From NCBI RefSeq assembly GCF_058153355.1, contig NZ_CM177019.1: DNA of 64,000 nt; one strand, written 5' to 3'. The first letter of the stretch is position 1, and each line of letters opens with the position of its first letter. Position numbers and translations under genes: made by a program. Below the pieces are notes generated by a model. That model was not told the origin of the DNA. It searched no databases and was given only the letters and a program-made list of their open reading frames with translations. Shown piece after piece: positions 13,320 to 57,203 of the stretch.

Positions 13320-13326
13320 TGTTTTG

Positions 13327-13365
13327 CACCTCATCCTGACAGGCCCCCCCCCTCAGGATGAGGTG
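13327..13365. terminator. bidirectional intrinsic terminator hairpin between sapF and the convergent MFS gene
   Basis: 13 bp arms cacctcatcctga / tcaggatgaggtg around a C-run loop. Confidence 0.7.
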
Positions 13366-13369
13366 TTCA

Positions 13370-14533: not shown

Positions 14534-14541
14534 ATTATTCC

Positions 14542-15915
14542 TTACTTGAGTGATGACATGCCGCCGCCCAGCGACTGCCAGAGCGTGATTCGGTTTGTAA
14601 AATCAGTCAGTTGCAGTGCCAGCAGCTCCTGCTGTGCGCTCCACAAGCTGCGCTGCGCCGTCAACACGGTCAGGTAATCACCAACACCCGCCTGATAGCG
14701 ACGCAAGCCAACATCGACCGTTTGTTGCTCAGCTTTAACATACTGGCGCTGTGCATCCAGTTGCTCTTCAAGCGTGGTCCGCCGCGCCAGTGCGTTAGCG
14801 ACATCTTTAAATGCGCTCTGAACGGTTTTTTCATAGGTGGCAATGAGCCCACGCTTTTGTGCTTCTGCGTAACGAAGCTGCGCCAGATTACTTCCGCCAG
14901 TGAACAGCGGTAATGTGACCGATGGTGCAAATGACCAGATCTGCATTCCGTGGCTGAACAACGACGACAATGCGTCACTGCCCACACCGGCACTGGCAGT
15001 CAGCGAAATCGTCGGGAAAAAGTTAGCCCGCGCCGCGCCAATATCTGCATTGGCGCTCTTCAAATTATGTTCCGCTTCCTGGATATCCGGGCGACGCAGC
15101 AGAACATCAGATGATACTCCCGCAGGAACCAGACTTATCATTTGTTCCGGCAGGCTTTCCAGTGTTCCCGGTAGCAGATTTTCCGCAAGCGTTGTACCTG
15201 CCAGTAAGTTCAGCGCATTTTTATCCTGCATCACTTGTGTCTGATAGCTGGCAACGCTGGCGCGCGCTTGCTGATAAACACTCATCGCCTCACTGACATC
15301 TGTCGCTGCCGCCGTGCCAACCTGTTGCTGGCGCTGGATAATTTTCAATGAGTTTTCTGCACTGGCCATCGTTTCTTTTGCCAGGGCCAGGTTGCTGTTA
15401 TCGGCCGCCAGTGTCAGCCAGGCGGTGCTGATTTCAGCAATCAGCGTTAAACGAGTGTTCTGGGCTGTAAATTCACTGGCAAGCCAGGTTTCCCGCGCCG
15501 CCCGAGATAAACTCTGATTACGACCAAACAGATCTAACGTATAACTGGACACCGTGCCGTCAGCCTCGGCAGTTGTTCCCGTACCATTCGCCAGCGAACG
15601 ACTGCGAGTCGAACTTAAGGCCGCATTCACCGTCGGAAATAACGACGCATTAGTTTGCCCATAGAGCGCCCGTGCTGAGTCAATATCAGCAATCGCTTTT
15701 TGCACATCGCGGTTACTGTTCAGTGCAATGGTTACTACCTGCTGCAATCGGGGATCGTGAATCACCTGCTGCCAGTCATGGCTGATTGCCTTCCCCTGGC
15801 CCTGTGCTCCCGGCAAGGTCGCCGGGATTGGGGATTCAGGCGTACTGTAGTGAGGATCGAGCGAGACACATCCCGCACTCAACAACACCAGAAAAATAAG
15901 AGAACGACGCAACAT
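14542..15915 (-). CDS. outer-membrane efflux lipoprotein, NodT/OprM family
   Basis: 457 aa; lipoprotein signal MLRRSLIFLVLLSAGC; OMF-like repeats; 4 bp after the RND stop. Confidence 0.85.
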   Translation of the reverse strand: MLRRSLIFLVLLSAGCVSLDPHYSTPESPIPATLPGAQGQGKAISHDWQQVIHDPRLQQVVTIALNSNRDVQKAIADIDSARALYGQTNASLFPTVNAALSSTRSRSLANGTGTTAEADGTVSSYTLDLFGRNQSLSRAARETWLASEFTAQNTRLTLIAEISTAWLTLAADNSNLALAKETMASAENSLKIIQRQQQVGTAAATDVSEAMSVYQQARASVASYQTQVMQDKNALNLLAGTTLAENLLPGTLESLPEQMISLVPAGVSSDVLLRRPDIQEAEHNLKSANADIGAARANFFPTISLTASAGVGSDALSSLFSHGMQIWSFAPSVTLPLFTGGSNLAQLRYAEAQKRGLIATYEKTVQSAFKDVANALARRTTLEEQLDAQRQYVKAEQQTVDVGLRRYQAGVGDYLTVLTAQRSLWSAQQELLALQLTDFTNRITLWQSLGGGMSSLK

Positions 15916-15918
15916 AAC

Positions 15919-18900: not shown

Positions 18901-19026
18901 CGGCGGTGCAACGTCAGGATATTGCGCGACGGGTAATGTGCGAATAGCCAGAATCCCCGCCAACATAATCAAAATGGCGATAACCCAGGCAAAGACCGGG
19001 CGGCGAACAAAAAAGCGCGAAAACAT
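15919..19026 (-). CDS. RND multidrug efflux permease, HAE1 (AcrB/MexB-like) family
   Basis: 1035 aa; N-terminus MFSRFFVRRPVFAWVIAILIML typical of AcrB-type pumps; 12-TM with two large periplasmic loops. Confidence 0.9.
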   Translation of the reverse strand: MFSRFFVRRPVFAWVIAILIMLAGILAIRTLPVAQYPDVAPPTIKISATYTGASAETLENSVTQVIEQQLTGLDNLLYFSSTSSSDGSVSINVTFEQGTDPDTAQVQVQNKIQQAESRLPSEVQQTGVTVEKSQSNFLLIAAVYDTTDKASSSDIADWLVSNVQDPLARVEGVGSLQVFGAEYAMRIWLDPAKLASYSLMPSDVQSAIEAQNVQVTAGKIGALPSPDTQQLTATVRAQSRLQTVDQFKNIIVKSQSDGAVVRIKDVARVEMGSEDYTAIGKLNGHPSAGVAVMLSPGANALNTATLVKDKIAEFQRNMPQGYDIAYPKDSTEFIKISVEDVIQTLFEAIVLVVCVMYLFLQNLRATLIPALAVPVVWLGTFGVLALFGYSINTLTLFAMVLAIGLLVDDAIVVVENVERIMRDEGLPAREATEKSMGEISGALVAIALVLSAVFLPMAFFGGSTGVIYRQFSITIISAMLLSVVVALTLTPALCGSVLQHVPPHKKGFFGAFNRFYRRTEDKYQRGVIYVLRRAARTMGLYVVLGGGMALMMWKLPGSFLPTEDQGEIMVQYTLPAGATAARTAEVNRQIVDWFLINEKANTDVIFTVDGFSFSGSGQNTGMAFVSLKNWSQRKGAENTAQAIALRATKELGTIRDATVFAMTPPAVDGLGQSNGFTFELLANGGTDRETLLQMRNQLIEKANQSPELHSVRANDLPQMPQLQVDIDSNKAVSLGLSLNDVTDTLSSAWGGTYVNDFIDRGRVKKVYIQGDSEFRSAPSDLGKWFVRGSDNAMTPFSAFATTRWQYGPERLVRYNGSAAYEIQGENATGFSSGDAMTKMEELANSLPAGTTWAWSGLSLQEKLASGQALSLYAVSILVVFLCLAALYESWSVPFSVILVIPLGLLGAALAAWMRDLNNDVYFQVALLTTIGLSSKNAILIVEFAEAAVAEGYSLSRAALRAAQTRLRPIIMTSLAFIAGVMPLAIATGAGANSRIAIGTGIIGGTLTATLLAIFFVPLFFVLVKRLFAGKPRRQE

Positions 19027-20147
19027 CAGGCATTGCCTCCATTAGCCTGAACTTCAACAGCCTTGACGGTCTGCCCTGAAGTGACTTTGGCAGAACCTTC
19101 AACAATCAGTCGGTCGCCGTTGTGCAGGCCGTTCAGCACCAGCCATTTATCACCATACGTTTCTCCCGTTTCGAGCGTTCGCTGCTCTACTTTATTGTCT
19201 TTATTCACCACCAGCGCAGTTGCATTGCCTTTAGCATCGCGCGTAACGCCCTGTTGAGGCGCGAGAATAGCGTTTTCCATCACGCCTTCATCGACACGAG
19301 CGCGAACAAACATTCCCGGTAATAACTGCTGTTGTGGATTGGGGAAAATTGCCCGTAATGTCACCGAACCGGTAGACTCATCCACCGCGACTTCGGTGAG
19401 TTCCAGACGCCCTTTTTCGCTGTAGGTTGTGCCATCTTCCAGAATAAGTGAGACGCTCATGGTGTCACTGTTGGTCGCCAGTGACTGTTTACGCAGACGT
19501 AATAAATCGACACTGGAGCGAGTGAGGTCGACATACATTGTATCCAGACCACGAATAGTCGTTAACGCTGTATCCTGCGACGCGGTCACCAGTGCGCCAG
19601 GGGTTACCGACGAAATACCAATACGCCCCGAAATCGGTGCGGTTACCGTGGTCCAGTCAAGATTAATGCGCGCAGTTTCCAGTGCGGCTTTTTTCGCCTC
19701 TACACTGGCTTTATCTTGTGCACAGGTAGACTGAGCATCATCAGCATCCTGTTGTGAAACACCATTCTCTTTCACCAGTCGGGCATAACGCTGCGCTTTC
19801 TGGCAATCGGCTTTTACCAGTGCCTGTGCTTGTTGTAATGCTGCCCGGGCTTCATTCCATGCAGCCTGATAACTGGCCGCATCAATCTGGTAGAGAGGCT
19901 GTCCAGCCTTGACCAGATCACCTTCCTTAAATAAGCGTTTCTGGATAATTCCCCCAACTTGCGGACGTACTTCAGCACTGAGCGCAGCACTGGTGCGTCC
20001 GGTTAATTCACTGACTACCGAAACCGGTTGAGATTTGAGCGTAACAACGCCGACTTCTGTTTCTGACGGGGATGAATTGTTACTTTGCGTATTATCACAA
20101 CCCGATAAGAGCAGCATTGCCACTACAGATGTTGCTATATACTTCAT
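19026..20147 (-). CDS. RND periplasmic adaptor (membrane fusion protein) lipoprotein
   Basis: ORF 19026..20180; start at MKYIATSVVAMLLLSGC (lipobox); stop overlaps the RND start. Confidence 0.85.
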   Translation of the reverse strand: MKYIATSVVAMLLLSGCDNTQSNNSSPSETEVGVVTLKSQPVSVVSELTGRTSAALSAEVRPQVGGIIQKRLFKEGDLVKAGQPLYQIDAASYQAAWNEARAALQQAQALVKADCQKAQRYARLVKENGVSQQDADDAQSTCAQDKASVEAKKAALETARINLDWTTVTAPISGRIGISSVTPGALVTASQDTALTTIRGLDTMYVDLTRSSVDLLRLRKQSLATNSDTMSVSLILEDGTTYSEKGRLELTEVAVDESTGSVTLRAIFPNPQQQLLPGMFVRARVDEGVMENAILAPQQGVTRDAKGNATALVVNKDNKVEQRTLETGETYGDKWLVLNGLHNGDRLIVEGSAKVTSGQTVKAVEVQANGGNA

Positions 20148-20231
20148 TATTTTCTCCAGGGTGAGAAATACCCTCCTCATTGAAATTAATGAGGATATGT
20201 CAGGGATATTCAGTTATAACGAACCCGCATC

Positions 20232-20247
20232 GCGAAATGAATTTCGC
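20232..20247. promoter_or_regulatory. 7-2-7 inverted repeat gcgaaat-ga-atttcgc upstream of the adaptor gene; candidate TetR operator
   Basis: Read directly; lies between the tetR terminator hairpin and the adaptor start. Confidence 0.45.
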
Positions 20248-20257
20248 AATGAAATAA

Positions 20258-20275
20258 GGGGGATTAATATCCCCC
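20258..20275. terminator. hairpin gggggat-taat-atccccc, T-rich on the minus strand; candidate tetR terminator
   Basis: Perfect 7 bp stem about 20 bp after the tetR stop (minus strand). Confidence 0.5.
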
Positions 20276-20295
20276 GCTATTGGTTAATTCTGTTC

Positions 20296-20862
20296 TTATT
20301 TATTTATCAACATACTAACAATATCCTGATATATTTCCTGCAGATGTTGTGGATCGCTTTTTTGCGGTGTTAAACGACGATAAACCGTACCTTCCATCAT
20401 GGTAGCAAACACTTCAACGCAGCAATGAATGTGATCGTCGCTAAGATGGGGATGCATTCTTTTCATATGTGCACAACCGTTAGCGAACATTCTGGCGTCA
20501 GCTTCTTCAAGCATTGCCATAACCCGCGGGTTGCGTGTGGCTTCTGCAGCCACTTCCAGCATCAGCGCGTCGTCGTCCTCATTTAAGGATTTACGCAAGG
20601 CAAGGACTTCCGGGAAGTGATCGGTACGCGCGTCAATGTCCATTTGGGCAATACGAAAGTCGATGATACGGCGAACCATCTCTTCAATAATGGCGTCTTT
20701 GTTGGCGAAGTAACGATATATCTGACCCACGCTAAGCTGAGCTTCGCTGGCAATTTGCGACATACTGGCGGCATGAAATCCGCAGCGACGAAAACACCGA
20801 CGGGCGGCGTTAATGATTTCATCCTGACGCTGTTTGTGGCGTATCTCCAGCTTGCTGGTCAT
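20296..20862 (-). CDS. TetR/AcrR-family transcriptional regulator
   Basis: ORF 20296..20961; start at MTSKLEI with AGGAG 7 nt upstream; HTH region AARRCFRRCGFHAASMSQIASEAQLSVGQIYRYF. Confidence 0.8.
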   Translation of the reverse strand: MTSKLEIRHKQRQDEIINAARRCFRRCGFHAASMSQIASEAQLSVGQIYRYFANKDAIIEEMVRRIIDFRIAQMDIDARTDHFPEVLALRKSLNEDDDALMLEVAAEATRNPRVMAMLEEADARMFANGCAHMKRMHPHLSDDHIHCCVEVFATMMEGTVYRRLTPQKSDPQHLQEIYQDIVSMLINK

Positions 20863-20887
20863 TTCTGTCTCCTGGCCTATCACTTGG

Positions 20888-20905
20888 TGAGAATGATCAT
20901 TCTCA
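20888..20905. promoter_or_regulatory. 18 bp perfect palindrome tgagaatgatcattctca, 26 bp upstream of the tetR start; candidate autoregulatory operator
   Basis: Read directly on the sequence. Confidence 0.4.
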
Positions 20906-21339
20906 TTTTTGCTAATTATACGTTTCTCCAAAGTAATGGAAAGTATTTTTATCTTATTCATGGTGCATATTCTGATAATGAAGAGATTGTGGAGATTCTG
21001 TGAAGATAGTTGACAATATTAAGTTGGGGTCAATTCATCAGAAAGGCAGCGACTTGTTGTCGCCAGTTCTGTTTTCATCATCAAACTTATCGGAGCTAAT
21101 ACGAATAGTTTCATAGTCAGATTCTATAAGATATTTCCCCAACCTACCCCTTGCAGGCGTCAAGAGTAGATAACGCAAAATGCTCTGTACCGCAGCTTCT
21201 CTCCGGTACAGAAAGCGCAACTATAGCCACCCACAGCCAGGTTGATTATAATAACCGTTTATCTGTTCGTACTGTTTACTAAAACGACGAATCGCCTGAT
21301 TTTCAGGCACAACAAGCATCAACAATAAGGATTAAAGCT

Positions 21340-43314: not shown

Positions 43315-44073
43315 ATGCATTACCAGCCAAAACAAGATTTACTCAATGATCGCATTATCCTGGTGACGGGAGCCAGCAATGGTATTGGTCGTGAAGCCGC
43401 GATGACGTATGCACGCTATGGTGCGACAGTGATTCTGTTGGGCCGTAATGAAGAAAAATTACGTCAGGTAGCCAGCCACATAAACGAAGAAACTGGGCGT
43501 CAGCCACAGTGGTTTATTCTCGATTTGCTGACCTGCACGTCCGAAGATTGCCAACAACTGGCACAGCGCATTGCCGTTAATTATCCGCGTCTGGATGGTG
43601 TTTTGCATAATGCCGGATTGCTCGGCGATGTTTGCCCAATGAGCGAACAAAATCCGCAGGTCTGGCAGGACGTCATGCAGGTCAACGTTAATGCCACCTT
43701 TATGCTCACCCAGGCACTGCTTCCTTTATTACTCAAATCGGACGCCGGTTCACTGGTCTTTACTTCATCAAGCGTTGGACGTCAGGGGCGTGCAAACTGG
43801 GGCGCTTATGCAGCGTCGAAATTTGCCACCGAAGGGATGATGCAGGTACTGGCCGATGAATATCAGCAGCGCCTGCGCGTCAACTGCATTAACCCAGGTG
43901 GTACGCGCACCGCAATGCGCGCAAGCGCCTTCCCGACCGAAGATCCACAGAAACTTAAAACACCCGCTGATATCATGCCGCTCTACCTCTGGCTGATGGG
44001 CGATGACAGCCGCCGTAAAACCGGCATGACCTTTGACGCCCAACCGGGCCGTAAACCAGGAATATCCCAATGA
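43315..44073 (+). CDS. yciK: short-chain dehydrogenase/reductase
   Basis: 252 aa; Rossmann motif VTGASNGIGREAA. Confidence 0.9.
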   Translation: MHYQPKQDLLNDRIILVTGASNGIGREAAMTYARYGATVILLGRNEEKLRQVASHINEETGRQPQWFILDLLTCTSEDCQQLAQRIAVNYPRLDGVLHNAGLLGDVCPMSEQNPQVWQDVMQVNVNATFMLTQALLPLLLKSDAGSLVFTSSSVGRQGRANWGAYAASKFATEGMMQVLADEYQQRLRVNCINPGGTRTAMRASAFPTEDPQKLKTPADIMPLYLWLMGDDSRRKTGMTFDAQPGRKPGISQ

Positions 44074-44660
44074 GTGATGAACGCTACCAACAGCGTCAGC
44101 AGCGTGTAAAAGATAAAGTGGATGCCCGTGTGGCCCAGGCCCAGGATGAACGCGGTATTATCATCGTCTTTACCGGCAATGGAAAAGGCAAAACCACCGC
44201 AGCATTTGGTACGGCAACACGCGCAGTTGGTCACGGAAAAAAAGTGGGCGTCGTGCAGTTTATTAAAGGCACCTGGCCTAATGGCGAACGAAATCTGCTG
44301 GAACCACACGGCGTTGAATTTCAGGTGATGGCAACGGGCTTTACCTGGGATACGCAAAACCGCGAATCTGATACCGCGGCCTGCCGTGAAGTCTGGCAAC
44401 ATGCCAAACGAATGCTGGCCGATCCTTCACTGGATATGGTTTTGCTCGATGAGCTGACTTGTATGGTGGCGTATGACTATTTGCCACTGGAAGAAGTGGT
44501 GCAGGCGTTAAATGAACGTCCACATCAACAGACGGTGATTATCACGGGGCGTGGTTGTCATCGGGATATTCTTGAACTGGCGGATACGGTAAGTGAATTA
44601 CGCCCCGTCAAACATGCGTTTGATGCTGGTGTTAAGGCGCAAATCGGGATTGATTATTAA
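44070..44660 (+). CDS. btuR: cob(I)alamin adenosyltransferase
   Basis: 196 aa; P-loop GNGKGKTTAAFG; overlaps the yciK stop. Confidence 0.92.
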   Translation: MSDERYQQRQQRVKDKVDARVAQAQDERGIIIVFTGNGKGKTTAAFGTATRAVGHGKKVGVVQFIKGTWPNGERNLLEPHGVEFQVMATGFTWDTQNRESDTAACREVWQHAKRMLADPSLDMVLLDELTCMVAYDYLPLEEVVQALNERPHQQTVIITGRGCHRDILELADTVSELRPVKHAFDAGVKAQIGIDY

Positions 44661-44666
44661 GTGAAA

Positions 44667-44700
44667 GCACCTCAAAAGTTCGCCTCTTGAGGTGCTAATT
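44667..44700 (+). terminator. intrinsic terminator after btuR
   Basis: gcacctcaa-loop-ttgaggtgc then taatttta. Confidence 0.7.
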
Positions 44701-44716
44701 TTAGATACTGAATGGC

Positions 44717-45025
44717 TTAATTAGCCACGGCAAAATTAAGAAGAGCTTGAATTTTATTCAAGTGTGCGGGATATTCCATGTCATTATCCGCATTGACGTC
44801 TTCAATAAACAGTATTAATTCAGTGATCAAATCATTAGCATCTTCATAACTAATACCAGTCAGTTCTGGTGACGTTTGCGAGCCATAATTAATTGTCAGA
44901 TTATTCATTACCGACAAAACCAGAATAAAATATTTGTGACATATATCGCAAGTTGTTCGGTTTCCTAAGGCATAGTACAGCATATTGAGCAATGCCAGTA
45001 TTCGTCGATTTTGCACATCGTTCAT
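44717..45025 (-). CDS. hypothetical 102 aa protein, no signal peptide, no recognisable domain; partner of the upstream lipoprotein
   Basis: ORF with AGGAGG RBS (ttataggaggtcatt-ATG) that overlaps the lipoprotein TAG stop; AT-rich. Confidence 0.7.
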   Translation of the reverse strand: MNDVQNRRILALLNMLYYALGNRTTCDICHKYFILVLSVMNNLTINYGSQTSPELTGISYEDANDLITELILFIEDVNADNDMEYPAHLNKIQALLNFAVAN

Positions 45026-45034
45026 AATGACCTC

Positions 45035-46057
45035 CTATAACATAACTCCGCTGGCAATAAGAAGTTTTGCCAGCTCCTCTGACGCCTGTAGACCACTAAT
45101 AACTTGAGAACGCAGGATCTCATTCCTACGCTCTAAATCCGCTTTAGAAAGAGATTTATTAGCGTATAAATCTTGTAGATGATTTCCTTTATCCATGAAG
45201 GCATTAATAGCTTGTATTGCTGGAGCCGCCGGATCAGATGAACGCAATCTGCTTTCATTAAGATTAATTACTGCACTCAAAAATTCCTGTCTACTCTTTA
45301 ATGTTTTAAATTCTATGTTTTTAGTATTTGCTCGGGCCTTATTATAGTAATAAAAATTATTGCTGATGTTCGCAAAATTATTCCAATCCATTTGCTGCTG
45401 TTTCGTTGCTATATCATCGAGTAAATCTTGTAAATTTCTTTGAAGTCGTGGCCAGTCACTACCTACCGTTTTACCAACATTTTCTGATTTAATCTTCTCT
45501 TTATATAATCCATTGAAATATTGAACTAAATCTTTAACAGCTACAGCTGACTTAGTCAGTTCTTCACCTTCTGAAAGGCCAAGTAGTTTTTGGGCGTTGT
45601 TTGCATGATCGAGCGCCTGATTAAGTAATATAATTTGTTTACTATCGTCAACATCCATATCCACCGTCAACAACTCCACATAGGAGCTCATACTGTTAAC
45701 GACCTCAAGTGAAGCCAGTAGCTTTTGTTTTTCTGTGGTTGCCAATTGAACTTTAGTAACGTCTTTATACGATGTTTTGTCCCCTTTCTCTGATTGCATA
45801 CATAAGGACTCTTTATTAGTATTATTTTCCATAATCGTTTCATAATCAGGTCGCAATGCACAATCCGGATTAGTCGCATAAAAATTAACAAGGAAGTTTT
45901 CACGAGAAGCATAGTATTGTTTAAAGAAACTTGCATTCGCCGCAACCGCCTTGTTACCCGCAGTAATAACAGTTTCAGCTTGTTCATTCTTCAATGCTTC
46001 GGTTGCACAACCTGAAAGCATTAACAGCGATAGAAATAATCCACTATATCTAATCAT
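45035..46057 (-). CDS. hypothetical 340 aa lipoprotein, Asn/Lys/Gln/Leu-rich, unknown function
   Basis: Signal peptide with lipobox MIRYSGLFLSLLMLSGC; GAGGTG RBS; strongly AT-rich. Confidence 0.75.
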   Translation of the reverse strand: MIRYSGLFLSLLMLSGCATEALKNEQAETVITAGNKAVAANASFFKQYYASRENFLVNFYATNPDCALRPDYETIMENNTNKESLCMQSEKGDKTSYKDVTKVQLATTEKQKLLASLEVVNSMSSYVELLTVDMDVDDSKQIILLNQALDHANNAQKLLGLSEGEELTKSAVAVKDLVQYFNGLYKEKIKSENVGKTVGSDWPRLQRNLQDLLDDIATKQQQMDWNNFANISNNFYYYNKARANTKNIEFKTLKSRQEFLSAVINLNESRLRSSDPAAPAIQAINAFMDKGNHLQDLYANKSLSKADLERRNEILRSQVISGLQASEELAKLLIASGVML

Positions 46058-46197
46058 AACCCACCTCTTGACGTTGAGTTTATCTCAGATAATTAAATAG
46101 TAATGTGGCTATTCCCTGGCATTATTCATAAGCAAGTATGAAATTAAATTAAAATACTGCGACTATTTATCATGCTTCAAATGAAGAAAAGGCCCCG

Positions 46198-46217
46198 CAG
46201 GGCCTTTATTTAATACT
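46198..46217 (-). terminator. rluB intrinsic terminator
   Basis: aaaggccc-cgca-gggccttt; on the minus strand followed by ttttcttcattt; 10 bp after the rluB stop. Confidence 0.7.
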
Positions 46218-46226
46218 TAACTTAAA

Positions 46227-47102
46227 TTAACCGTTATTATTACGTCCACCAGAACGACGACCGCCGCTGACCTGGCTGTGACGTTTCACCGCACGACGAA
46301 TTTGATTCGCCTTCATACGACGACGGTCTTTTTCTACAGCAACTTTAGAGCTGGTTTCTGGCGGTAGTTCCACCAGCTCACGCAGATAGTTAGTCTGGGC
46401 AAGATCCAACTCAGTCCAGCCACCGCGTGGCAGACCTTTCGGCAGTGGGATATCACCGTAACGAACGCGGATCAGACGGCTCACCTGCACACCAACCGCT
46501 TCCCAAAGACGACGTACTTCACGGTTACGGCCTTCGGTCAAAGTAACGTTGTACCACTGGTTGATCCCTTCGCCGCCGCTGAACTTAATGGTTTTAAAGG
46601 CTGCCGGACCATCTTCCAGCTGCACGCCACGACTCAAATCACGCAGTTTCGCGTCGTCAACCTGACCAAATACACGCACCGCATATTCACGTTCAACTTC
46701 ACGGCTTGGATGCATTAAACGGTTTGCCAGTTCACCGTCGGTGGTGAACAGCAGCAGACCACAGGTGTTAACGTCCAGACGACCTACGGCAATCCAGCGT
46801 GCGCCACGCAGCTTTGGCAGACGGTCAAATACCGTTGGACGCCCTTCCGGATCGTTACGGGTACACAACTCACCTTCCGGTTTGTAATAGGCCAGAACGC
46901 GACAAATTTGTTCAGCGGACTCACGTACCGAAATCAGGTGACCATCGATACGGATTTTCAATCCAGGGGTAATTTCAACACGATCGCCGAGTTTAGCAAT
47001 TTTGCCATCAACACTCACACGTCCGGCTTCAATAATAGATTCGATTTCACGGCGAGAACCGTGGCCGGCACGCGCCAGCACTTTCTGTAGCTTTTCGCTC
47101 AT
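46227..47102 (-). CDS. rluB: 23S rRNA pseudouridine synthase B
   Basis: 291 aa; N-terminal S4 domain ([21 protein letters not shown]), RsuA-type catalytic core, basic C-tail. Confidence 0.93.
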
Positions 47103-47202
47103 AGAGCTTCCTTTTGGTGTCGCCTTCCCAGGCGTCGAACAGGAGAATCAATGGCGCAGTAGAGCGCCATTTTAAGGCCGCGTAGTATACAGAGTTAAGC
47201 AC

Positions 47203-47823
47203 TTATAAAAAAGGCTTCACATCACCTACGCCTTCACGCAATACGACTGGCGTATCATCGGTGAGATCAATAACCGTTGTCGGTTTCTGCCCGAGATAGC
47301 CGCCGTGAATAATCAAATCCACCTGTTTTTCCAGACGGTCTTTAATTTCTTCCGGATCAGACTCGGTAAATTCGCTGCCTGGTAGCATCAGTGATGTGGA
47401 AAGCATCGGTTCGCCCAATGCTTCAAGCAACGCCTGCGCAATCGGGTTAGAAGGCACACGCATACCGATGGTTTTGCGTTTTTCCTGCAACAGACGGCGT
47501 GGCACTTCCTTCGTCCCCTTCAGGATGAAAGTGTAGTTACCCGGCGTATTGTTTTTCATCAAACGAAACGCAACGTTATCGACAAATGAATAGGTCGAGA
47601 GTTCAGAAAGATCGCGACACATCAGGGTAAAGTTGTGACCGTCCGGCAGCTGGCGAATACGACAAATACGCTCCATGGCGTTTTTATCTTCAATTTTACA
47701 GCCGAGCGCATAGCCGGAATCAGTTGGATAAACAATCACCCCGCCTTTACGCACGATCTCCACCGCCTGGTTGATCAGACGTTGCTGCGGGTTATCAGGA
47801 TGAATATAAAAAAACTGGCTCAT
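47203..47823 (-). CDS. yciO: Sua5/YciO/YrdC-family protein
   Basis: ORF 47203..47859; start at MSQFFYIHPDNPQ gives 206 aa. Confidence 0.88.
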   Translation of the reverse strand: MSQFFYIHPDNPQQRLINQAVEIVRKGGVIVYPTDSGYALGCKIEDKNAMERICRIRQLPDGHNFTLMCRDLSELSTYSFVDNVAFRLMKNNTPGNYTFILKGTKEVPRRLLQEKRKTIGMRVPSNPIAQALLEALGEPMLSTSLMLPGSEFTESDPEEIKDRLEKQVDLIIHGGYLGQKPTTVIDLTDDTPVVLREGVGDVKPFL

Positions 47824-48701
47824 AATTCCCTCTCTGTGGTGTTCTGCGGCTGTTCCCATAGCTGCCAGACGCCTTCAACGCCTGCGGGCAGCCAGAGTTT
47901 ACGACCCAGTTCGATCCACGGACATGGCTGATGAAAATCAGATCCTTGTGATGCCCATAAATGATGCTGACGCGCAAGCGTCGCCAGCTGGGTGCGTTCA
48001 TTGGGCGATTGCTGGCATTGCGCGACTTCCATCGCGTCGCCGTGGTGTTCGGCAAAATGCGCAACCAATCTTTTCAGCCATTTAGCACTAAGATTGTACC
48101 GCCCAGGATGAGCAAGCACCGCCTTACCGCCAGAATGATGAATGACATCAATAGCTTGTTCTATTGTACACCACTGTGGCGGAACGTATCCGGTTTTCCC
48201 GCGCGCCAGATATTTTTTAAAGATATCCGCCATTGAACTGGCTTTGCCACATTCAACCAAGAAACGAGCAAAATGACCGCGCGTCACCGCACCGCCCTGC
48301 GCCAGTCGTTGCGCGCCTTCCAGCGCCCCAAGTATTTGTGCTTTTTCAAGTCTTTCGGCAATTAACTTCGCCCGCTGATTGCGCCGTTCTGTCTGCTGCG
48401 CGAGGAACTCACACATTAGCGGATGAGTAATATCAATATTCAGCCCGACAATATGAATTTCATGATTTTCCCAGACGGTGGATATTTCCACGCCAGGAAT
48501 AAGATTCAGTGCCAGTCCTGAACGTGAAATTTCTTCTCTTGCTGGCGCGATTGCCGCTGTGGTGTCATGGTCGGTGATCGCCAGGGTGCCGACGCGCATC
48601 TCGACTGCACGGTGCACCAATGCTTCTGGCGTCAGGCAGCCATCGGAAGCTGTGGTATGGCTGTGCAGGTCATAAATCACTGCGTAATTCGTGTCGCTCA
48701 A
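47820..48701 (-). CDS. trpH: PHP-domain phosphoesterase (RNase AM)
   Basis: ORF 47820..48782; likely TTG start at 48701 giving 293 aa (MSDTNYAVIYDLHSHTTASDG); start codon uncertain. Confidence 0.8.
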   Translation of the reverse strand: MSDTNYAVIYDLHSHTTASDGCLTPEALVHRAVEMRVGTLAITDHDTTAAIAPAREEISRSGLALNLIPGVEISTVWENHEIHIVGLNIDITHPLMCEFLAQQTERRNQRAKLIAERLEKAQILGALEGAQRLAQGGAVTRGHFARFLVECGKASSMADIFKKYLARGKTGYVPPQWCTIEQAIDVIHHSGGKAVLAHPGRYNLSAKWLKRLVAHFAEHHGDAMEVAQCQQSPNERTQLATLARQHHLWASQGSDFHQPCPWIELGRKLWLPAGVEGVWQLWEQPQNTTEREL

Positions 48702-48775
48702 GGCGCACTCCCGTTTTGGATAATGTTTTTGCGCCGACATCATAACGGTTCTGGCAAATATTCTGAAATGAGCTG

Positions 48776-48810
48776 TTGACAATTAATCATCGAACTAGTT
48801 AACTAGTACG
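48776..48810 (+). promoter_or_regulatory. trp promoter (-35 TTGACA at 48776..48781) with the TrpR operator palindrome cgaactagttaactagtacg (48791..48810)
   Basis: Sequence matches the textbook trp promoter/operator. Confidence 0.9.
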
Positions 48811-48837
48811 CAAGTTCACGTAAAAAGGGTATCGACA

Positions 48838-48882
48838 ATGAAAGCGATTTTCGTACTGAAAGGTTGGTGGCGCACTTCCTGA
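48838..48882 (+). CDS. trpL: trp operon leader peptide with tandem Trp codons
   Basis: Encodes [14 protein letters not shown] then stop. Confidence 0.95.
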
Positions 48883-48924
48883 AACGGGCAGTGTATTCAC
48901 CATGCGTAAAGCAACCAGATACCC

Positions 48925-48952
48925 AGCCCGCCTAATGAGCGGGCTTTTTTTT
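48925..48952 (+). terminator. trp attenuator (3:4 terminator hairpin plus U-tract)
   Basis: agcccgc-ctaatga-gcgggct followed by tttttttt. Confidence 0.92.
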
Positions 48953-48973
48953 GAACAAAATTAGAGAATAACA

Positions 48974-50536
48974 ATGCAAACACAAAAACCGACTCTCGAA
49001 CTGTTAACCTGCGAAGGTGCTTATCGCGATAATCCGACCGCGCTTTTTCATCAGTTGTGTGGGGATCGTCCGGCGACGCTGCTGCTGGAATCCGCAGATA
49101 TCGACAGCAAGGATGATTTAAAAAGCCTGCTGCTGGTGGACAGTGCGCTGCGCATTACAGCATTAGGTGACACTGTCACAATTAAGGCGCTCTCCGGCAA
49201 TGGCGAAGCCCTGCTGACACTACTGGATAACGCCCTGCCCGCTGGGGTCGATAATGAGCAATCGCCACAATGCCGCGTACTGCGCTTCCCCCCGGTCAGT
49301 CCACTGTTGGATGAAGACGCCCGTTTATGCTCCCTTTCGGTTTTTGACGCTTTCCGCATATTGCAGAATCTGTTGAATGTACCGAAGGAAGAACGAGAAG
49401 CAATGTTCTTCGGCGGCCTGTTCTCTTATGACCTTGTGGCGGGGTTTGAAGATTTACCGCAATTGTCAGCGGAAAATAACTGCCCTGATTTCTGTTTTTA
49501 TCTCGCTGAAACGCTGATGGTTATCGATCATCAGAAAAAAAGTACCCGTATTCAGGCCAGCCTGTTTGGTCAAAATGAAGAAGAAAAACAACGTCTCACT
49601 GCTCGCCTGAACGAACTTCGCCAGCAACTGACCGAAACCGCGCCACCGCTGCCGGTAGTTTCCGTGCCGCATATGCATTGTGAATGTAATCAGAGCGATG
49701 AAGAGTTCGGTGGCGTAGTGCGTTCGTTGCAAAAAGCGATTCGCGCCGGAGAAATTTTCCAGGTCGTGCCATCTCGCCGTTTCTCACTGCCCTGCCCGTC
49801 ATCGCTGGCGGCCTATTACGTGCTGAAAAAGAGTAATCCCAGCCCGTACATGTTTTTTATGCAGGATAATGATTTCACCCTGTTCGGCGCGTCGCCGGAA
49901 AGTTCGCTCAAGTATGACGCCTCCAGCCGCCAGATTGAGATCTACCCGATTGCCGGAACACGCCCACGAGGACGTCGCGCCGATGGTTCACTGGACAGAG
50001 ACCTGGACAGCCGCATTGAACTGGAGATGCGTACCGACCATAAAGAGCTTTCTGAACATCTGATGCTGGTGGATCTCGCCCGTAATGATCTGGCACGCAT
50101 TTGCACTCCTGGCAGCCGCTACGTAGCCGATCTCACCAAAGTTGACCGTTACTCTTACGTGATGCATCTCGTCTCCCGCGTGGTCGGTGAGCTGCGCCAC
50201 GATCTTGACGCCCTGCACGCTTACCGCGCCTGTATGAATATGGGCACGTTAAGCGGTGCCCCGAAAGTGCGCGCCATGCAGTTAATTGCCGAAGCGGAAG
50301 GTCGTCGACGCGGCAGCTACGGCGGCGCGGTAGGTTATTTCACCGCACATGGCGATCTCGACACCTGCATTGTCATCCGTTCGGCGCTGGTGGAAAACGG
50401 TATCGCCACCGTGCAAGCCGGTGCTGGCGTAGTCCTTGATTCTGTTCCGCAGTCGGAAGCCGACGAAACCCGTAATAAAGCCCGCGCTGTACTGCGCGCT
50501 ATCGCCACCGCGCATCATGCACAGGAGACTTTCTGA
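48974..50536 (+). CDS. trpE: anthranilate synthase component I
   Basis: 520 aa; stop overlaps the trpD start (tgATGg). Confidence 0.95.
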
Positions 50537-52131
50537 TGGCTGACATTCTGCTGCTCGATAATATCGACTCTTTTACTTATAACCTGGCAGATCAGTTGCG
50601 CAGCAATGGGCATAACGTGGTGATTTACCGCAACCATATTCCGGCGCAAACCTTAATTGAACGTCTTGCGACCATGAGGAATCCGGTGCTGATGCTTTCT
50701 CCTGGCCCCGGAGTGCCGAGTGAAGCAGGTTGTATGCCGGAACTCCTCACCCGTTTGCGTGGCAAGCTGCCAATTATTGGCATTTGCCTCGGACATCAGG
50801 CGATTGTCGAAGCTTACGGGGGCTATGTCGGTCAGGCGGGCGAAATTCTTCACGGTAAAGCGTCGAGCATTGAACATGACGGTCAGGCGATGTTTGCCGG
50901 ATTAACAAACCCATTGCCGGTGGCGCGTTATCACTCGCTGGTTGGCAGTAATATTCCGGCAGGTTTAACCATCAACGCCCATTTTAATGGCATGGTGATG
51001 GCGGTGCGTCATGATGCGGATCGCGTTTGTGGATTCCAGTTCCATCCGGAATCCATTCTCACCACCCAGGGCGCTCGCCTGCTGGAACAAACGCTGGCCT
51101 GGGCGCAACAGAAGCTGGAGCCGACCAACACACTGCAACCAATTCTGGAAAAACTGTATCAGGCGCAGACGCTTAGCCAGCAGGAAAGCCACCAGCTTTT
51201 TTCTGCGGTGGTGCGTGGTGAACTGAAGCCGGAACAACTGGCGGCAGCACTGGTCAGCATGAAAATTCGCGGCGAGCACCCGAACGAAATCGCCGGAGCA
51301 GCAACGGCGCTACTGGAAAACGCCGCGCCGTTCCCGCGCCCGGATTATCTGTTTGCTGATATCGTCGGCACAGGTGGTGACGGCAGCAACAGCATCAACA
51401 TTTCTACTGCCAGTGCTTTTGTCGCTGCGGCCTGTGGACTGAAAGTGGCGAAACACGGTAACCGCAGCGTCTCCAGTAAATCTGGCTCGTCAGATCTGCT
51501 GGCTGCGTTCGGTATCAACCTGGATATGAATGCCGATAAATCGCGCCAGGCGCTCGACGAGTTAGGCGTCTGCTTTCTCTTTGCACCGAAATACCACACC
51601 GGATTTCGCCACGCGATGCCCGTTCGCCAGCAACTGAAAACCCGCACCCTGTTCAACGTGCTGGGGCCACTGATTAACCCGGCGCATCCGCCGCTGGCGC
51701 TAATTGGTGTCTACAGCCCGGAACTGGTGCTGCCAATTGCCGAAACCTTGCGTGTGCTGGGGTATCAACGCGCAGCGGTGGTGCACAGCGGGGGGATGGA
51801 TGAAGTTTCATTACACGCGCCGACAATCGTTGCCGAACTGCATGACGGCGAAATTAAGAGCTATCAGTTGACCGCTGAAGATTTTGGCCTGACACCCTAC
51901 CATCAGGAGCAACTGGCAGGCGGAACACCGGAAGAAAACCGTGACATTTTAACACGCTTGTTACAAGGTAAAGGCGACGCCGCCCATGAAGCAGCTGTCG
52001 CGGCGAATGTCGCCATGTTAATGCGCCTGCATGGCCATGAAGATCTGCAAGCCAATGCGCAAACCGTTCTTGAGGTACTGCGCAGTGGTTCCGCTTACGA
52101 CAGAGTCACCGCACTGGCGGCACGAGGGTAA
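50536..52131 (+). CDS. trpD: bifunctional anthranilate synthase glutamine amidotransferase / anthranilate phosphoribosyltransferase
   Basis: 531 aa fused TrpG-TrpD. Confidence 0.95.
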
Positions 52132-53493
52132 ATGATGCAAACCGTTTTAGCGAAAATCGTCGCAGACAAGGCGATTTGGGTAGAAGCCCGCAAACAGCAG
52201 CAACCGCTGGCCAGTTTTCAGAATAAGGTTCAGCCGAGCACGCGACATTTTTATGATGCGCTACAGGGTGCACGCACGGCGTTTATTCTGGAGTGCAAGA
52301 AAGCGTCGCCGTCAAAAGGCGTGATACGTGATGATTTCGATCCGGCACGCATTGCCGCCATTTATAAGCATTACGCTTCGGCAATTTCTGTACTGACTGA
52401 TGAGAAATATTTCCAGGGGAGCTTTGATTTCCTCCCCATCGTCAGCCAAATCGCCCCGCAACCGATTTTATGTAAAGACTTTATTATCGACCCTTACCAG
52501 ATCTATCTGGCGCGCTATTACCAGGCCGATGCCTGTTTATTAATGCTGTCGGTGCTGGACGACGATCAGTATCGCCAGCTCGCTGCTGTAGCCCACAGTC
52601 TGGAGATGGGCGTGCTGACCGAAGTCAGTAATGAAGAGGAGCTGGAGCGCGCCATTGCATTGGGAGCAAAAGTCGTTGGCATCAACAACCGCGATCTGCG
52701 TGATTTGTCGATTGATCTTAACCGTACCCGCGAGCTTACGCCGAAACTGGGGCACAACGTGACGGTAATCAGCGAATCCGGCATCAATACTTACGCCCAG
52801 GTGCGTGAGTTAAGCCACTTCGCTAACGGCTTTCTGATTGGTTCGGCGCTAATGGCCCATGATGATTTGAACGCCGCCGTGCGCCGGGTGTTGCTGGGTG
52901 AGAATAAAGTGTGTGGTCTGACGCGTGGGCAAGATGCTAAAGCAGCTCATGACGCGGGCGCGATTTACGGTGGATTGATATTTGTTACAACGTCACCCCG
53001 TTGCGTCAGCGTTGAACAGGCGCAGGAAGTGATGGCTGCGGCACCGTTGCAATACGTTGGCGTGTTCCGCAATCACGATATTGCCGATGTGGTGGACAAA
53101 GCTAAGGTGTTATCGCTGGCGGCAGTGCAACTGCATGGTAATGAAGATCAGCTGTATATCGACACTCTGCGTGAGGCTCTGCCAGCAAACGTCGCCATCT
53201 GGAAGGCTTTAAGTGTCGGTGAAACTCTTCCCGCGCGCGATTTTCAGCACATCGATAAATATGTATTCGACAACGGTCAGGGCGGGAGCGGACAACGTTT
53301 CGACTGGTCACTGTTAAACGGTCAATCGCTTGGCAACGTTCTGCTGGCGGGTGGCTTAGGCGCAGATAACTGCGTGGAAGCGGCACAAACCGGCTGCGCC
53401 GGGCTTGATTTTAATTCTGCTGTAGAGTCGCAACCGGGCATCAAAGACGCACGTCTTTTGGCCTCGGTTTTCCAGACGCTGCGCGCATATTAA
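52132..53493 (+). CDS. trpC: bifunctional indole-3-glycerol-phosphate synthase / phosphoribosylanthranilate isomerase
   Basis: 453 aa. Confidence 0.95.
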
Positions 53494-53504
53494 GGAAAGG
53501 AACA

Positions 53505-54698
53505 ATGACAACATTACTTAACCCGTATTTTGGTGAGTTTGGCGGCATGTACGTGCCACAAATCCTGATGCCTGCTCTGCGCCAGCTGGAAGAAGCTTTT
53601 GTCAGCGCGCAAAAAGATCCTGAATTTCAGGCCCAGTTCAACGACCTGCTGAAAAACTATGCCGGGCGCCCAACCGCGCTGACCAAATGTCAGAACATTA
53701 CAGCCGGGACGAACACCACGCTGTATCTGAAGCGTGAAGATTTGCTGCACGGCGGCGCGCATAAAACTAACCAGGTTCTGGGCCAGGCTTTGCTGGCGAA
53801 GCGGATGGGTAAAACCGAAATCATCGCCGAAACCGGTGCAGGTCAGCATGGCGTGGCTTCTGCGCTTGCCAGCGCCCTGCTCGGCCTGAAATGCCGTATT
53901 TATATGGGTGCCAAAGACGTTGAACGCCAGTCGCCTAACGTTTTTCGTATGCGCTTAATGGGTGCGGAAGTGATCCCGGTGCATAGCGGTTCCGCGACGC
54001 TGAAAGATGCCTGTAATGAGGCGCTACGCGACTGGTCCGGCAGTTATGAAACCGCGCACTATATGCTGGGCACTGCAGCTGGCCCGCATCCTTACCCGAC
54101 CATTGTGCGTGAGTTTCAGCGGATGATTGGCGAAGAAACGAAAGCGCAAATTCTGGAAAGAGAAGGTCGTCTGCCGGATGCCGTCATCGCTTGTGTTGGC
54201 GGCGGTTCGAATGCCATCGGCATGTTTGCAGATTTCATCAACGAAACCGACGTCGGCCTGATTGGTGTAGAGCCAGGCGGTCATGGTATCGAAACTGGCG
54301 AGCACGGCGCACCGTTAAAACATGGTCGCGTGGGCATCTATTTCGGTATGAAAGCGCCAATGATGCAAACCGAAGACGGGCAGATTGAAGAGTCTTACTC
54401 GATTTCTGCCGGACTGGATTTCCCGTCAGTCGGCCCGCAACACGCTTATCTCAACAGCATTGGACGCGCTGATTATGTGTCAATCACCGATGATGAAGCT
54501 CTGGAAGCCTTCAAAACGCTGTGCCTGCACGAAGGGATTATCCCGGCGCTGGAATCCTCCCACGCGCTGGCCCACGCACTGAAAATGATGCGCGAAAACC
54601 CGGAAAAAGAGCAGCTACTGGTGGTTAACCTTTCCGGTCGCGGCGATAAAGACATCTTCACCGTTCACGATATTTTGAAAGCACGAGGGGAAATCTGA
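53505..54698 (+). CDS. trpB: tryptophan synthase beta subunit
   Basis: 397 aa; PLP-dependent fold; stop overlaps the trpA start. Confidence 0.95.
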
Positions 54699-55504
54699 TG
54701 GAACGCTATGAATCTCTGTTTGCCCAACTGAAGGAGCGCAAAGAAGGCGCATTCGTTCCTTTCGTCACCCTCGGTGATCCGGGCATTGAGCAGTCGCTGA
54801 AAATTATCGATACGCTAATTGAAGCCGGTGCTGACGCGCTGGAGTTAGGTATCCCCTTCTCCGACCCACTGGCAGATGGCCCGACGATTCAAAACGCCAC
54901 ACTGCGTGCCTTTGCGGCAGGTGTGACCCCGGCGCAGTGCTTTGAGATGCTGGCACTCATTCGCCAGAAGTACCCGACCATTCCGATCGGCCTTTTGATG
55001 TATGCCAACCAGGTGTTTAACAAAGGCATTGATGAGTTTTATGCCCAGTGCGAAAAAGTCGGCGTCGATTCGGTGCTGGTTGCCGATGTGCCCGTGGAAG
55101 AGTCTGCGCCCTTCCGCCAGGCCGCGTTGCGCCATAATGTCGCACCTATCTTTATTTGCCCGCCGAATGCCGACGAGGATTTGCTGCGCCAGATTGCCTC
55201 TTATGGCCGTGGTTACACCTATTTATTGTCGCGTGCGGGCGTGACCGGAGCTGAAAACCGCGCCGCGTTACCTCTCAATCATCTGGTTGCGAAGCTGAAA
55301 GAGTACAACGCTGCGCCTCCATTGCAAGGATTTGGTATTTCCGCCCCGGATCAGGTAAAAGCAGCGATTGATGCAGGAGCTGCGGGCGCGATTTCTGGTT
55401 CGGCAATTGTTAAAATCATCGAGCAACATATTAATGAGCCAGAGAAAATGCTGGCGGTACTGAAAGCTTTTGTACAACCGATGAAAGCAGCGACGCGCAG
55501 TTAA
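54698..55504 (+). CDS. trpA: tryptophan synthase alpha subunit
   Basis: 268 aa; [28 protein letters not shown]. Confidence 0.95.
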
Positions 55505-55511
55505 TCCCACA

Positions 55512-55537
55512 GCCGCCAGTTCCGCTGGCGGCATTTT
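55512..55537 (+). terminator. trp operon terminator (trp t)
   Basis: gccgccag-ttccg-ctggcggc followed by attttaa. Confidence 0.85.
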
Positions 55538-55885
55538 AACTATCTTTAATGAAGCAGGAAAAATCCTAAATTCATTTATTATTTATCTTTTTACCGTTTC
55601 GCTTACCCCTGACGTACGTCAACTTACGTCATTTTTCCGCCCAACTGTAATATAATCGAACAAATTAATTCCGCAACATGACACCAGTAAAATCAATAAT
55701 TTTCCCTAATTCACTTATTCCTCAGGCAATTGTTAATATATCCAGAACGCTCATCAAAATATATTTCCCCTCTTCGCCTCTCGTTACGCTTAATTTGACT
55801 AATTCTCATTAGCGACTAATTTTAATGAGTGTCGACACACAACACTCACATTAATGAAACAATGCAACGCAACGGGAGAAATAAC

Positions 55886-56065
55886 ATGACCGAACATCGT
55901 GGTGGTTCAGGAAATTTCGCCGAAGACCGTGAGAAGGCATCCGACGCTGGCCGTAAAGGCGGTCAGCATAGCGGCGGTAATTTTAAAAATGATCCGCAAC
56001 GCGCATCCGAAGCGGGTAAAAAAGGCGGTCAACAAAGCGGTGGTAATAAATCAGGAAAATCCTGA
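55886..56065 (+). CDS. yciG: small stress protein with KGG repeats
   Basis: ORF 55829..56065; start at ATG 55886 (MTEHRGGSGNFAED), 59 aa. Confidence 0.8.
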   Translation: MTEHRGGSGNFAEDREKASDAGRKGGQHSGGNFKNDPQRASEAGKKGGQQSGGNKSGKS

Positions 56066-56150
56066 TTCACCGTTAATTATTAATATCAGCTGAGAAAGAT
56101 AATTGCATCTGCGGGCCGTATGGCTCGCAGTGATTTCACTGGAGAAAAAT

Positions 56151-56651
56151 ATGAATACGAAGTCCATTGAAGATGTATTTATTCACCTGCTTTCAGACAC
56201 CTACAGTGCAGAAAAACAATTAACACGGGCACTAGCAAAACTCGCAAGAGCAACATCAAACGAAAAATTAAGTCAGGCTTTTCATGCACACCTCGAGGAA
56301 ACTCATGGACAGATTGAACGTATTGATCAAGTTGTGGAATCTGAACCGAACCTGAAAATTAAGCGCATGAAATGTGTGGCAATGGAAGGTCTCATTGAAG
56401 AAGCTAATGAGGTCATCGAAAGTACCGAGAAAAACGAAGTACGTGATGCCGCACTAATTGCCGCTGCACAGAAAGTTGAGCACTATGAGATCGCCAGTTA
56501 TGGGACATTAGCGACACTGGCTGAGCAATTAGGTTATCGTAAAGCAGCGAAGCTTCTGAAAGAAACTCTGGAAGAAGAAAAGGCCACCGACATGAAACTA
56601 ACTGATCTGGCCCTTAATAACGTAAATAAGAAAGCAGAAAATAAAGCCTGA
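56151..56651 (+). CDS. yciF: ferritin-like DUF892 stress protein
   Basis: ORF 56103..56651; start at ATG 56151 (MNTKSIEDVF), 166 aa. Confidence 0.85.
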   Translation: MNTKSIEDVFIHLLSDTYSAEKQLTRALAKLARATSNEKLSQAFHAHLEETHGQIERIDQVVESEPNLKIKRMKCVAMEGLIEEANEVIESTEKNEVRDAALIAAAQKVEHYEIASYGTLATLAEQLGYRKAAKLLKETLEEEKATDMKLTDLALNNVNKKAENKA

Positions 56652-56696
56652 AATATGAACTTTAACTTTTAGTCATTTTATAAAGAGGACATTTTC

Positions 56697-57203
56697 ATGA
56701 ATCGTATTGAACATTATCACGACTGGTTACGTGACGCCCACGCAATGGAAAAGCAAGCAGAATCTATGCTTGAATCCATGGCCAGCCGCATAGATAATTA
56801 TCCTGAGCTACGCGCTCGTATTGAACAACATCTTAGTGAAACCAAAAACCAGATTGTACAACTGGAAACTATTCTTGATCGCAATGACATTTCACGTTCA
56901 GTCATTAAAGATTCTATGAGTAAAATGGCTGCACTTGGGCAGTCAATCGGTGGTATATTCCCTTCTGATGAAATAGTCAAAGGCTCTATTAGCGGATATG
57001 TCTTCGAGCAATTTGAAATCGCCTGTTACACCTCACTATTAGCAGCAGCAAAAAATGCCGGTGATACAGCTTCAATTCCAACCATCGAAGCGATTTTAAA
57101 TGAGGAAAAAGAAATGGCCGAGTGGCTGCTTCAGCATATTCCGCAAACAACTGAGAAATTTTTAATACGCTCTGAAACTGATGGCGTAGAAGCGAAGAAA
57201 TAA
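56697..57203 (+). CDS. yciE: ferritin-like DUF892 stress protein
   Basis: 168 aa; paralogous to yciF. Confidence 0.85.
   Translation: MNRIEHYHDWLRDAHAMEKQAESMLESMASRIDNYPELRARIEQHLSETKNQIVQLETILDRNDISRSVIKDSMSKMAALGQSIGGIFPSDEIVKGSISGYVFEQFEIACYTSLLAAAKNAGDTASIPTIEAILNEEKEMAEWLLQHIPQTTEKFLIRSETDGVEAKK

Follow-up and report, generated by a model that had tools for sequence, protein, structure and literature searches.

A 100-bp yciO–rluB spacer in Escherichia coli, probably an intact family-wide arrangement that alternates with the yciQ layout of K-12

In the RefSeq annotation of Escherichia coli K-12 MG1655, yciO (b1267) occupies positions 1324098-1324718 and is followed by yciQ (b1268, 1324746-1326641) and rluB (b1269, 1326852-1327727). 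The yciQ product is 631 aa long and matches the Pfam families DUF2207 (PF09972) in its N-terminal part and DUF2207_C (PF20990) in its C-terminal part, and the gene has been included in the K-12 operon yciVOQ (PMC3946193). Moreover, yciQ was classed as extended-core, and not as core, in a pan-genome study (PMC12595684), and strain-engineering papers use its locus as an integration site, as their titles state. The first-pass annotation of the DNA studied here had given, with some reservation, the K-12 order trpH-yciO-yciQ-rluB and a yciQ product of roughly 630 aa in the membrane; both points agree with the MG1655 annotation, where yciO and rluB are not direct neighbours. Another described system for comparison is the integration hotspot between conserved core genes, a general concept from pan-genome studies of the Enterobacteriaceae. 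The yciO–rluB junction resembles such hotspots in that one pair of core genes encloses cargo that is unrelated from genus to genus. Unlike them, no integrase or tRNA appears to be involved, and the inserts rejoin the shared sequence at a specific hairpin sequence of 16-18 bp, which is duplicated around some of the islands.

The stretch analysed here (64,000 nt of contig NZ_CM177019.1), hereafter the window, corresponded in its positions 4-64000 to K-12 1365268-1307921 at 95-98% identity, and it runs opposite to K-12 across the puu–sap–fabI–topA–trp–tonB region. Around the junction it carries yciK (43315-44073) and cobO/btuR (44070-44660) on the + strand, two unannotated ORFs (44717-45025 and 45035-46057), rluB, yciO and rnm/trpH on the − strand, and trpE on the + strand from 48974. 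The rluB gene (46227-47102), assigned from the ORF list and the annotation of matching genomes, encodes a 23S rRNA pseudouridine-2605 synthase of 291 aa with 99.7% identity to that of K-12 by TBLASTN. Furthermore, yciO (47203-47823 in the ORF list) encodes 206 aa, annotated as L-threonylcarbamoyladenylate synthase-like or as a putative RNA-binding protein, with 99.5% identity to the K-12 protein by TBLASTN. It closes the rnm(trpH)-yciO unit, its annotation is the same in strains 2013C-4282 and 2017-02-2CC, and in the matching genomes the annotated rnm/trpH gene measures 882 bp and overlaps the start of yciO. According to the ORF list, the gap between yciO and rluB spans 47103-47202, exactly 100 bp, and holds no credible gene: the only ORFs touching it are mechanical ones of 51 aa (−) and 57 aa (+), both overlapping the rluB start out of frame. 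The earlier claim that the two genes lie 100 bp apart without an ORF was borne out in this way.

When the window was aligned to K-12 MG1655 by BLAST, the gap in homology fell exactly at the yciO–rluB junction. The left block (window 49000-47203) extends in K-12 up to 1324718 and ends precisely with the yciO stop codon (47203-47205, − strand), and the right block (window 47136-46226) begins at K-12 1326818, 34 nt before the rluB ATG. The flanking genes are common to both genomes at 96% nucleotide identity, and the last 34 nt before rluB, which comprise a hairpin and the ribosome-binding site, are identical. K-12 differs in having yciQ and, ahead of rluB, a longer upstream region (~180 bp) that includes an additional hairpin, both of which the window lacks. 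The segment specific to the window is thereby reduced to 66 bp (47137-47202, − strand), facing a K-12 cassette of 2,099 bp that comprises yciQ and the larger part of the intergenic DNA around it. When the 66 bp were aligned locally to the 2,099 bp on both strands, only chance matches emerged, and the idea that they are a diverged remnant of yciQ was rejected on these grounds. Moreover, the ORF list showed no DUF2207 ORF between yciO and rluB, and TBLASTN with K-12 YciQ as the query found no similarity in the whole 64-kb window (best E = 1.1).

To place this junction among the Enterobacteriaceae, one genome per species was surveyed with YciO as the query, which yielded 80 loci. In 34 of them yciO and rluB were 100-112 bp apart, always with the conserved box described below, a share of 34/77 when restricted to the informative species loci; in 33 of the 80 the distance was 0.2-4.8 kb, and in 10 further loci rluB lay past the 3-5 kb of flank at hand. 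The window spacer (47103-47202, − strand), a gene-free short form termed form A, was found to be orthologous to that of many Enterobacteriaceae, aligning from stop codon to ATG with the short spacers of 17-23 other species, including E. albertii, at least eight Citrobacter, the Enterobacter cloacae complex, Lelliottia, Buttiauxella, Franconibacter, Silvania confinis and Dryocola. In E. albertii, Citrobacter and the Enterobacter cloacae complex, the spacer again measures ~100 bp and has the box TATACT+ACGCGGCC, hairpin 2 and the ribosome-binding site in common with the window; hairpin 1 is placed alike, but its stem sequence differs from that of the window through compensatory changes. In addition, a clear T-run follows hairpin 1 in Enterobacter, unlike in Escherichia and Citrobacter. 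Compared to Citrobacter, the window spacer showed 92% identity and the flanking coding DNA only 84-85%; since the spacer is more conserved than the coding DNA next to it, it is under constraint. All four features of form A were found in the window, namely the gap of ~100 bp, the box, a hairpin of variable sequence, and the invariant hairpin with AGGAAGCTC-ATG.

Reading the spacer on the − strand from the yciO stop codon, the conserved box TATACT + ACGCGGCC (together TATACTACGCGGCC) appears at 47176-47189 and combines a −10-like hexamer with a G+C-rich stretch after it. The box was defined as TATACT + (A/G)(C/T)(G/C)CGGCC at most 30 nt past the yciO stop, as found in the window, and its hexamer was invariant in 24 of 24 aligned spacers. 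In K-12 and in the genera bearing inserts, rluB is preceded by a homologous box, TAGTAT or TAATAT + GTGCGSCC. TATACT matches the sigma-70 −10 consensus in five of six positions; the −35 element 16 bp upstream is weak (TTTTTA by eye), and a consensus promoter scan made no call there. The box may be an rluB promoter with a G+C-rich discriminator or, alternatively, a conserved single-stranded element in the 3′-UTR of yciO. The consensus promoter/terminator scan called another site, TTAACT-18-TAAAAT, which was set aside for not being conserved beyond Escherichia and Citrobacter.

The box is followed by hairpin 1 (AAAATGGCGC-TCTACT-GCGCCATT, 47150-47173, − strand), which was present in both the MFE and the centroid folds. 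Every orthologous spacer had a G+C-rich stem of 8-11 bp at the same place with a different stem sequence, and RNAalifold found compensatory changes in three of the four consensus pairs. The window version has an 8-bp stem and the tail TGATTCTC, a weak U-tract for which the terminator scan made no call, and the Enterobacter orthologues end in a T-run (TTTTT or TTTTTG). Judging from this layout, which resembles that of a Rho-independent terminator apart from the weak U-tract, hairpin 1 may end the rnm–yciO transcript. Hairpin 2 (GACGCCTGGGAAGGCGAC; invariant form GACGCCTGKGAAGGCGAC; 47119-47136, − strand) has five base pairs, invariant in 24 of 24 sequences, and a GNRA-type loop, which is GGGA in the window and GUGA elsewhere. 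It marks both the right edge of K-12 homology and the point where all the inserts of other genera rejoin, and it may belong to the 5′ leader of rluB. Finally, the Shine-Dalgarno sequence AAGGAAG of rluB (47107-47113, − strand) is situated 4 nt upstream of the ATG, and AGGAAGCTC-ATG was invariant in all aligned species.

From this arrangement we infer that the spacer would probably carry the signals for ending the rnm–yciO transcript and for starting and leading that of rluB. No Rfam 15 covariance model matched the window between 46900 and 47400 at E ≤ 10, and an Rfam search of the K-12 region gave chance-level matches only. The literature found on yciQ, on rluB together with yciO and on rluB transcription starts held no functional or transcription-start data for the junction. 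A further-reaching proposal takes the spacer as an undescribed cis-regulatory leader of rluB, composed of a stringent-type promoter, a 5′ hairpin and the GNRA hairpin, with short and long forms existing across the Enterobacteriaceae and with the invariant hairpin serving also as the insertion point of cassettes, yciQ being one old cargo; it is a tentative idea whose odds are well below even. More speculatively still, hairpin 2 would resemble helix 93 of the 23S rRNA, which lies next to the RluB target U2605, and by this analogy the hairpin could allow RluB to regulate its own expression. The conserved elements of the spacer provide in any case a small, testable lead on rluB transcription.

The K-12 intergenic region between yciQ and rluB was recognized as a longer variant of the same upstream region, with a TAGTAT+GTTGCGCC box, an extra strong hairpin and hairpin 2. 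A module of this kind, ~150 nt long, was observed upstream of rluB in K-12 (locus L001, 7680-7852) and in 19 other loci from about a dozen genera. Its order is a TAGTAT+GTGCGSCC box, a variable hairpin, a second hairpin (CAGTGAGTYAR…) with a T-run, GTATACCA and the invariant hairpin, and it had no match in Rfam. The possibility that the long module represents one extremity of a mobile element (an integron attC site, for example) was rejected, as the module contains the promoter-like box of the short form and occurs irrespective of the cargo.

In all 28 of the 28 loci bearing inserts, homology resumed exactly at GACGCCTG, and the cargo between yciO and rluB was unrelated from genus to genus. 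Trabulsiella carries a Na/sulfate-type symporter (a tartrate-type transporter), two further ORFs and a LysR regulator; Silvania and Cedecea carry PAAR-domain proteins (PAAR toxins), Leclercia an Hcp protein and Salmonella arizonae the remnant of an IS integrase core. Other cargo comprised LysR and AraC regulators, a LysE exporter, an alpha/beta-hydrolase, and DUF4136, HNH and DUF4225 proteins. Furthermore, a direct repeat of ~16 bp, GACGCCTGTGAAGGCG (also given as GACGCCTGKGAAGGCG), corresponding to hairpin 2, flanks the islands of three genera, those of Silvania hatchlandensis (L048, 5677-8440), Cedecea sulfonylureivorans (L049, 5680-10395) and a Buttiauxella MAG (L081, 5680-7680), the last of which includes the DUF4225 protein. 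These repeat-flanked islands are bordered by an entire short spacer towards yciO and by an entire long form towards rluB. The listed ORF sizes of the cargo islands included none in the range of an integrase. The cargo site is empty in the window, for which this variability is therefore no more than context.

Within E. coli, a total of 5,426 complete genomes were considered. The genes yciO and rluB were contiguous in 1,441 of them, the spacer sequence itself was matched in 1,445, and yciQ was present in 3,967-3,991. As the short-spacer and yciQ counts sum almost exactly to the total, the two states are almost mutually exclusive, with yciQ in ~73% of the complete genomes, K-12 included, and the short spacer in ~27%. 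The common short-spacer allele, 94.8% identical to that of the window over a 96-bp query, was found in 1,431 genomes, including O111:H8, O22:H8 and O178:H19 strains; over the full 100 bp, the identity of the window spacer to that of O111:H8 was 95.0%. Only 14 genomes had a spacer at least 95% identical to that of the window, 7 of them at least 99%, and it was 100% identical in 2013C-4282 (NZ_CP027579.1) and 2017-02-2CC (NZ_AP027764.1). Strain IAI1, the phylogroup B1 reference strain, presents rnm-yciO, 100 bp and rluB without yciQ, with the same spacer architecture as the window, from which it differs in having no AT-rich insert of 1.57 kb between rluB and cobO. Regarding the other state, yciQ alleles showed 94-100% identity to K-12, and damaged copies were detected: O157:H7 strains have lost an internal part of the gene, IS1 interrupts it in an O6:H16 strain, and it is frameshifted in Z0117EC0005. 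As a side observation, records labelled as plasmids matched this chromosomal DNA in nine places for rluB–yciO, in three for the short spacer and in three for yciQ.

The closest relatives of the window on the rluB side were Z0117EC0005 and about eight other genomes, which match it at 99.6% identity from cobO, across the AT-rich insert and rluB, as far as 47136. Z0117EC0005 carries yciQ according to its annotation, and the other relatives probably do so too, because their match also stops at 47136. Between the window and Z0117EC0005, 8 differences were counted over 2,137 bp on the rluB side and 25 over 540 bp in the junction-side part of yciO, with fewer again in rnm. Moreover, the window yciO allele differs by ~4-6% from every other E. 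coli allele examined. The presence of yciQ in the closest rluB-side relatives, combined with the jump in SNP density at the junction, indicates that homologous recombination swaps the two states. They would be old alternative alleles passed between lineages via recombination through the highly conserved flanking genes. Here, a short tract would have exchanged the 3′ part of yciO with the short spacer against the 3′ part of yciO with the yciQ cassette, one end of the tract lying at or near hairpin 2. The exchange could have gone in either direction, the window lineage gaining the short spacer or its relatives gaining yciQ. Separately, the adjoining trp side of the window (47203-57000, with yciO, rnm and the trp operon) showed unusually strong and uneven divergence between E. 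coli strains, with 93-96% identity to K-12, O111:H8 and even the closest relatives in many 1-kb bins. These alternate with bins of at least 99%, giving an overall range of 93-99% in 1-kb bins and a mosaic of recombination tracts.

The reading preferred for the junction, to which a probability of about 0.85 is given, is that the 100 bp are the intact yciO–rluB spacer of the family and not what a deletion left behind, that yciQ is an accessory gene, and that the two layouts are old alternative alleles exchanged by recombination. A recent, clean deletion of yciQ from a K-12-like ancestor would agree with the nearest rluB-side relatives carrying yciQ, in frameshifted form in Z0117EC0005, and with the decay of the gene in the O157:H7 and O6:H16 strains mentioned above. 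However, the 66 bp at 47137-47202 cannot be the product of a deletion, being absent from K-12 and orthologous to the spacer of other genera, and the adjoining yciO allele changes along with the spacer. It would also have had to remove the K-12-type rluB upstream region (~180 bp), which is missing from the window too. That region was kept in Escherichia sp. E1V33 (L004, 5618-6042), where a gap of 424 bp holds the yciQ start (…TTCCAnGGATGGA…ATG) and the long rluB upstream module without any gene. A similar gap was found in Intestinirhabdus alba (L038, 5618-5840), with an apparent yciQ start (…TTCCAnGGATGGA…ATG) followed by the long module and again no gene. By their sequence, both gaps look like remnants of yciQ deletion; in contrast to E1V33, no residual yciQ and no K-12-type flanking intergenic DNA were found at the window junction, and a recent deletion is accordingly rated as very improbable. 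Even less credit is given to the short gap being an artefact of assembly or sampling, or to yciQ having been relocated in the genome. Such a reading draws on this genome being covered by the 64-kb window only. Against it, no YciQ homologue was found in the window, 1,445 finished genomes show the identical junction, 7 of which match the window at 99% or more, and 5,426 − 3,991 leaves 1,435 genomes without a yciQ match, so that about ten or more short-spacer genomes, and few beyond these, could hold yciQ elsewhere.

The polarity of the change is the point on which the evidence is more divided. The short spacer is probably ancestral for the family, as we infer from its being the commonest and most widely spread state. 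Were yciQ instead the ancestral resident of the Enterobacteriaceae, the short spacer would be derived from a single loss, spread by descent and recombination. In line with this, a YciQ homologue of 55% identity with the same DUF2207 domains occupies the same site in Klebsiella spallanzanii, an apparent 5′ remnant of yciQ persists in Intestinirhabdus, and the longer rluB upstream module of K-12 recurs in at least 20 loci spread over about a dozen genera, with the Pseudocitrobacter long form having a first hairpin like hairpin 1 of the short form. On the other side, the short form is the most frequent (34 of the 77 informative loci) and has the widest spread, as far as Buttiauxella and Franconibacter; only 2 of the 80 loci proved to hold yciQ itself, and the other cargo is unrelated between genera. 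An ancestral yciQ is considered unlikely, although less so than a recent deletion. The yciQ state is nevertheless also old, given the K. spallanzanii homologue, the yciQ 5′ region of Intestinirhabdus and two Escherichia outside E. coli, MOD1-EC7003, which has yciQ, and E1V33, both with a yciQ-type layout. Within Escherichia, the yciQ state could predate the short spacer. Returning to the preferred reading of two old alleles, the comparison with K-12 in the first-pass annotation needs a correction of polarity, since the window holds the widespread Enterobacteriaceae arrangement, which is probably not a loss relative to an ancestral layout.

The difference found is a real but ordinary one in gene content between strains, already known in kind, and yciQ had already been listed as non-core. 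K-12 is not the reference state for the yciO–rluB junction: roughly one E. coli in four, some well-known B1 strains among them, has rluB directly adjoining yciO. In this respect, yciQ behaves as a dispensable accessory gene, being frameshifted, deleted or interrupted by IS1 in several lineages and, as far as titles of strain-engineering papers tell, serving as a neutral integration site. A more general caution is that not every difference from K-12 is a loss. Finally, the result marks the trp–topA region as mosaic and rich in recombination.

The first-pass annotation had also proposed that accessory content in this region departs from K-12 at several points, which was confirmed by two more inserts in the window. 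An AT-rich insert of 1.57 kb (44661-46225) separates cobO/btuR from rluB, which are only 39 bp apart in K-12. Its G+C content is 35-38% vs. ~51% in the flanks, and its ORFs, both on the − strand, encode 340 aa with a lipoprotein-like N-terminus (…LLMLSGC) and 102 aa; a Pfam and NCBIfam search of both assigned no family. The insert is contiguous with rluB in ~775 E. coli genomes and its alleles are very divergent, with only ~70% identity to 2013C-4282 in that stretch. The other insert relative to K-12, of 7.9 kb (13319-21216), takes the place of the ycjD region between sapF and fabI. It contains five ORFs, all of them on the − strand, for a TetR regulator, a membrane-fusion protein, an AcrB-type RND pump, an outer-membrane factor and an MFS transporter.
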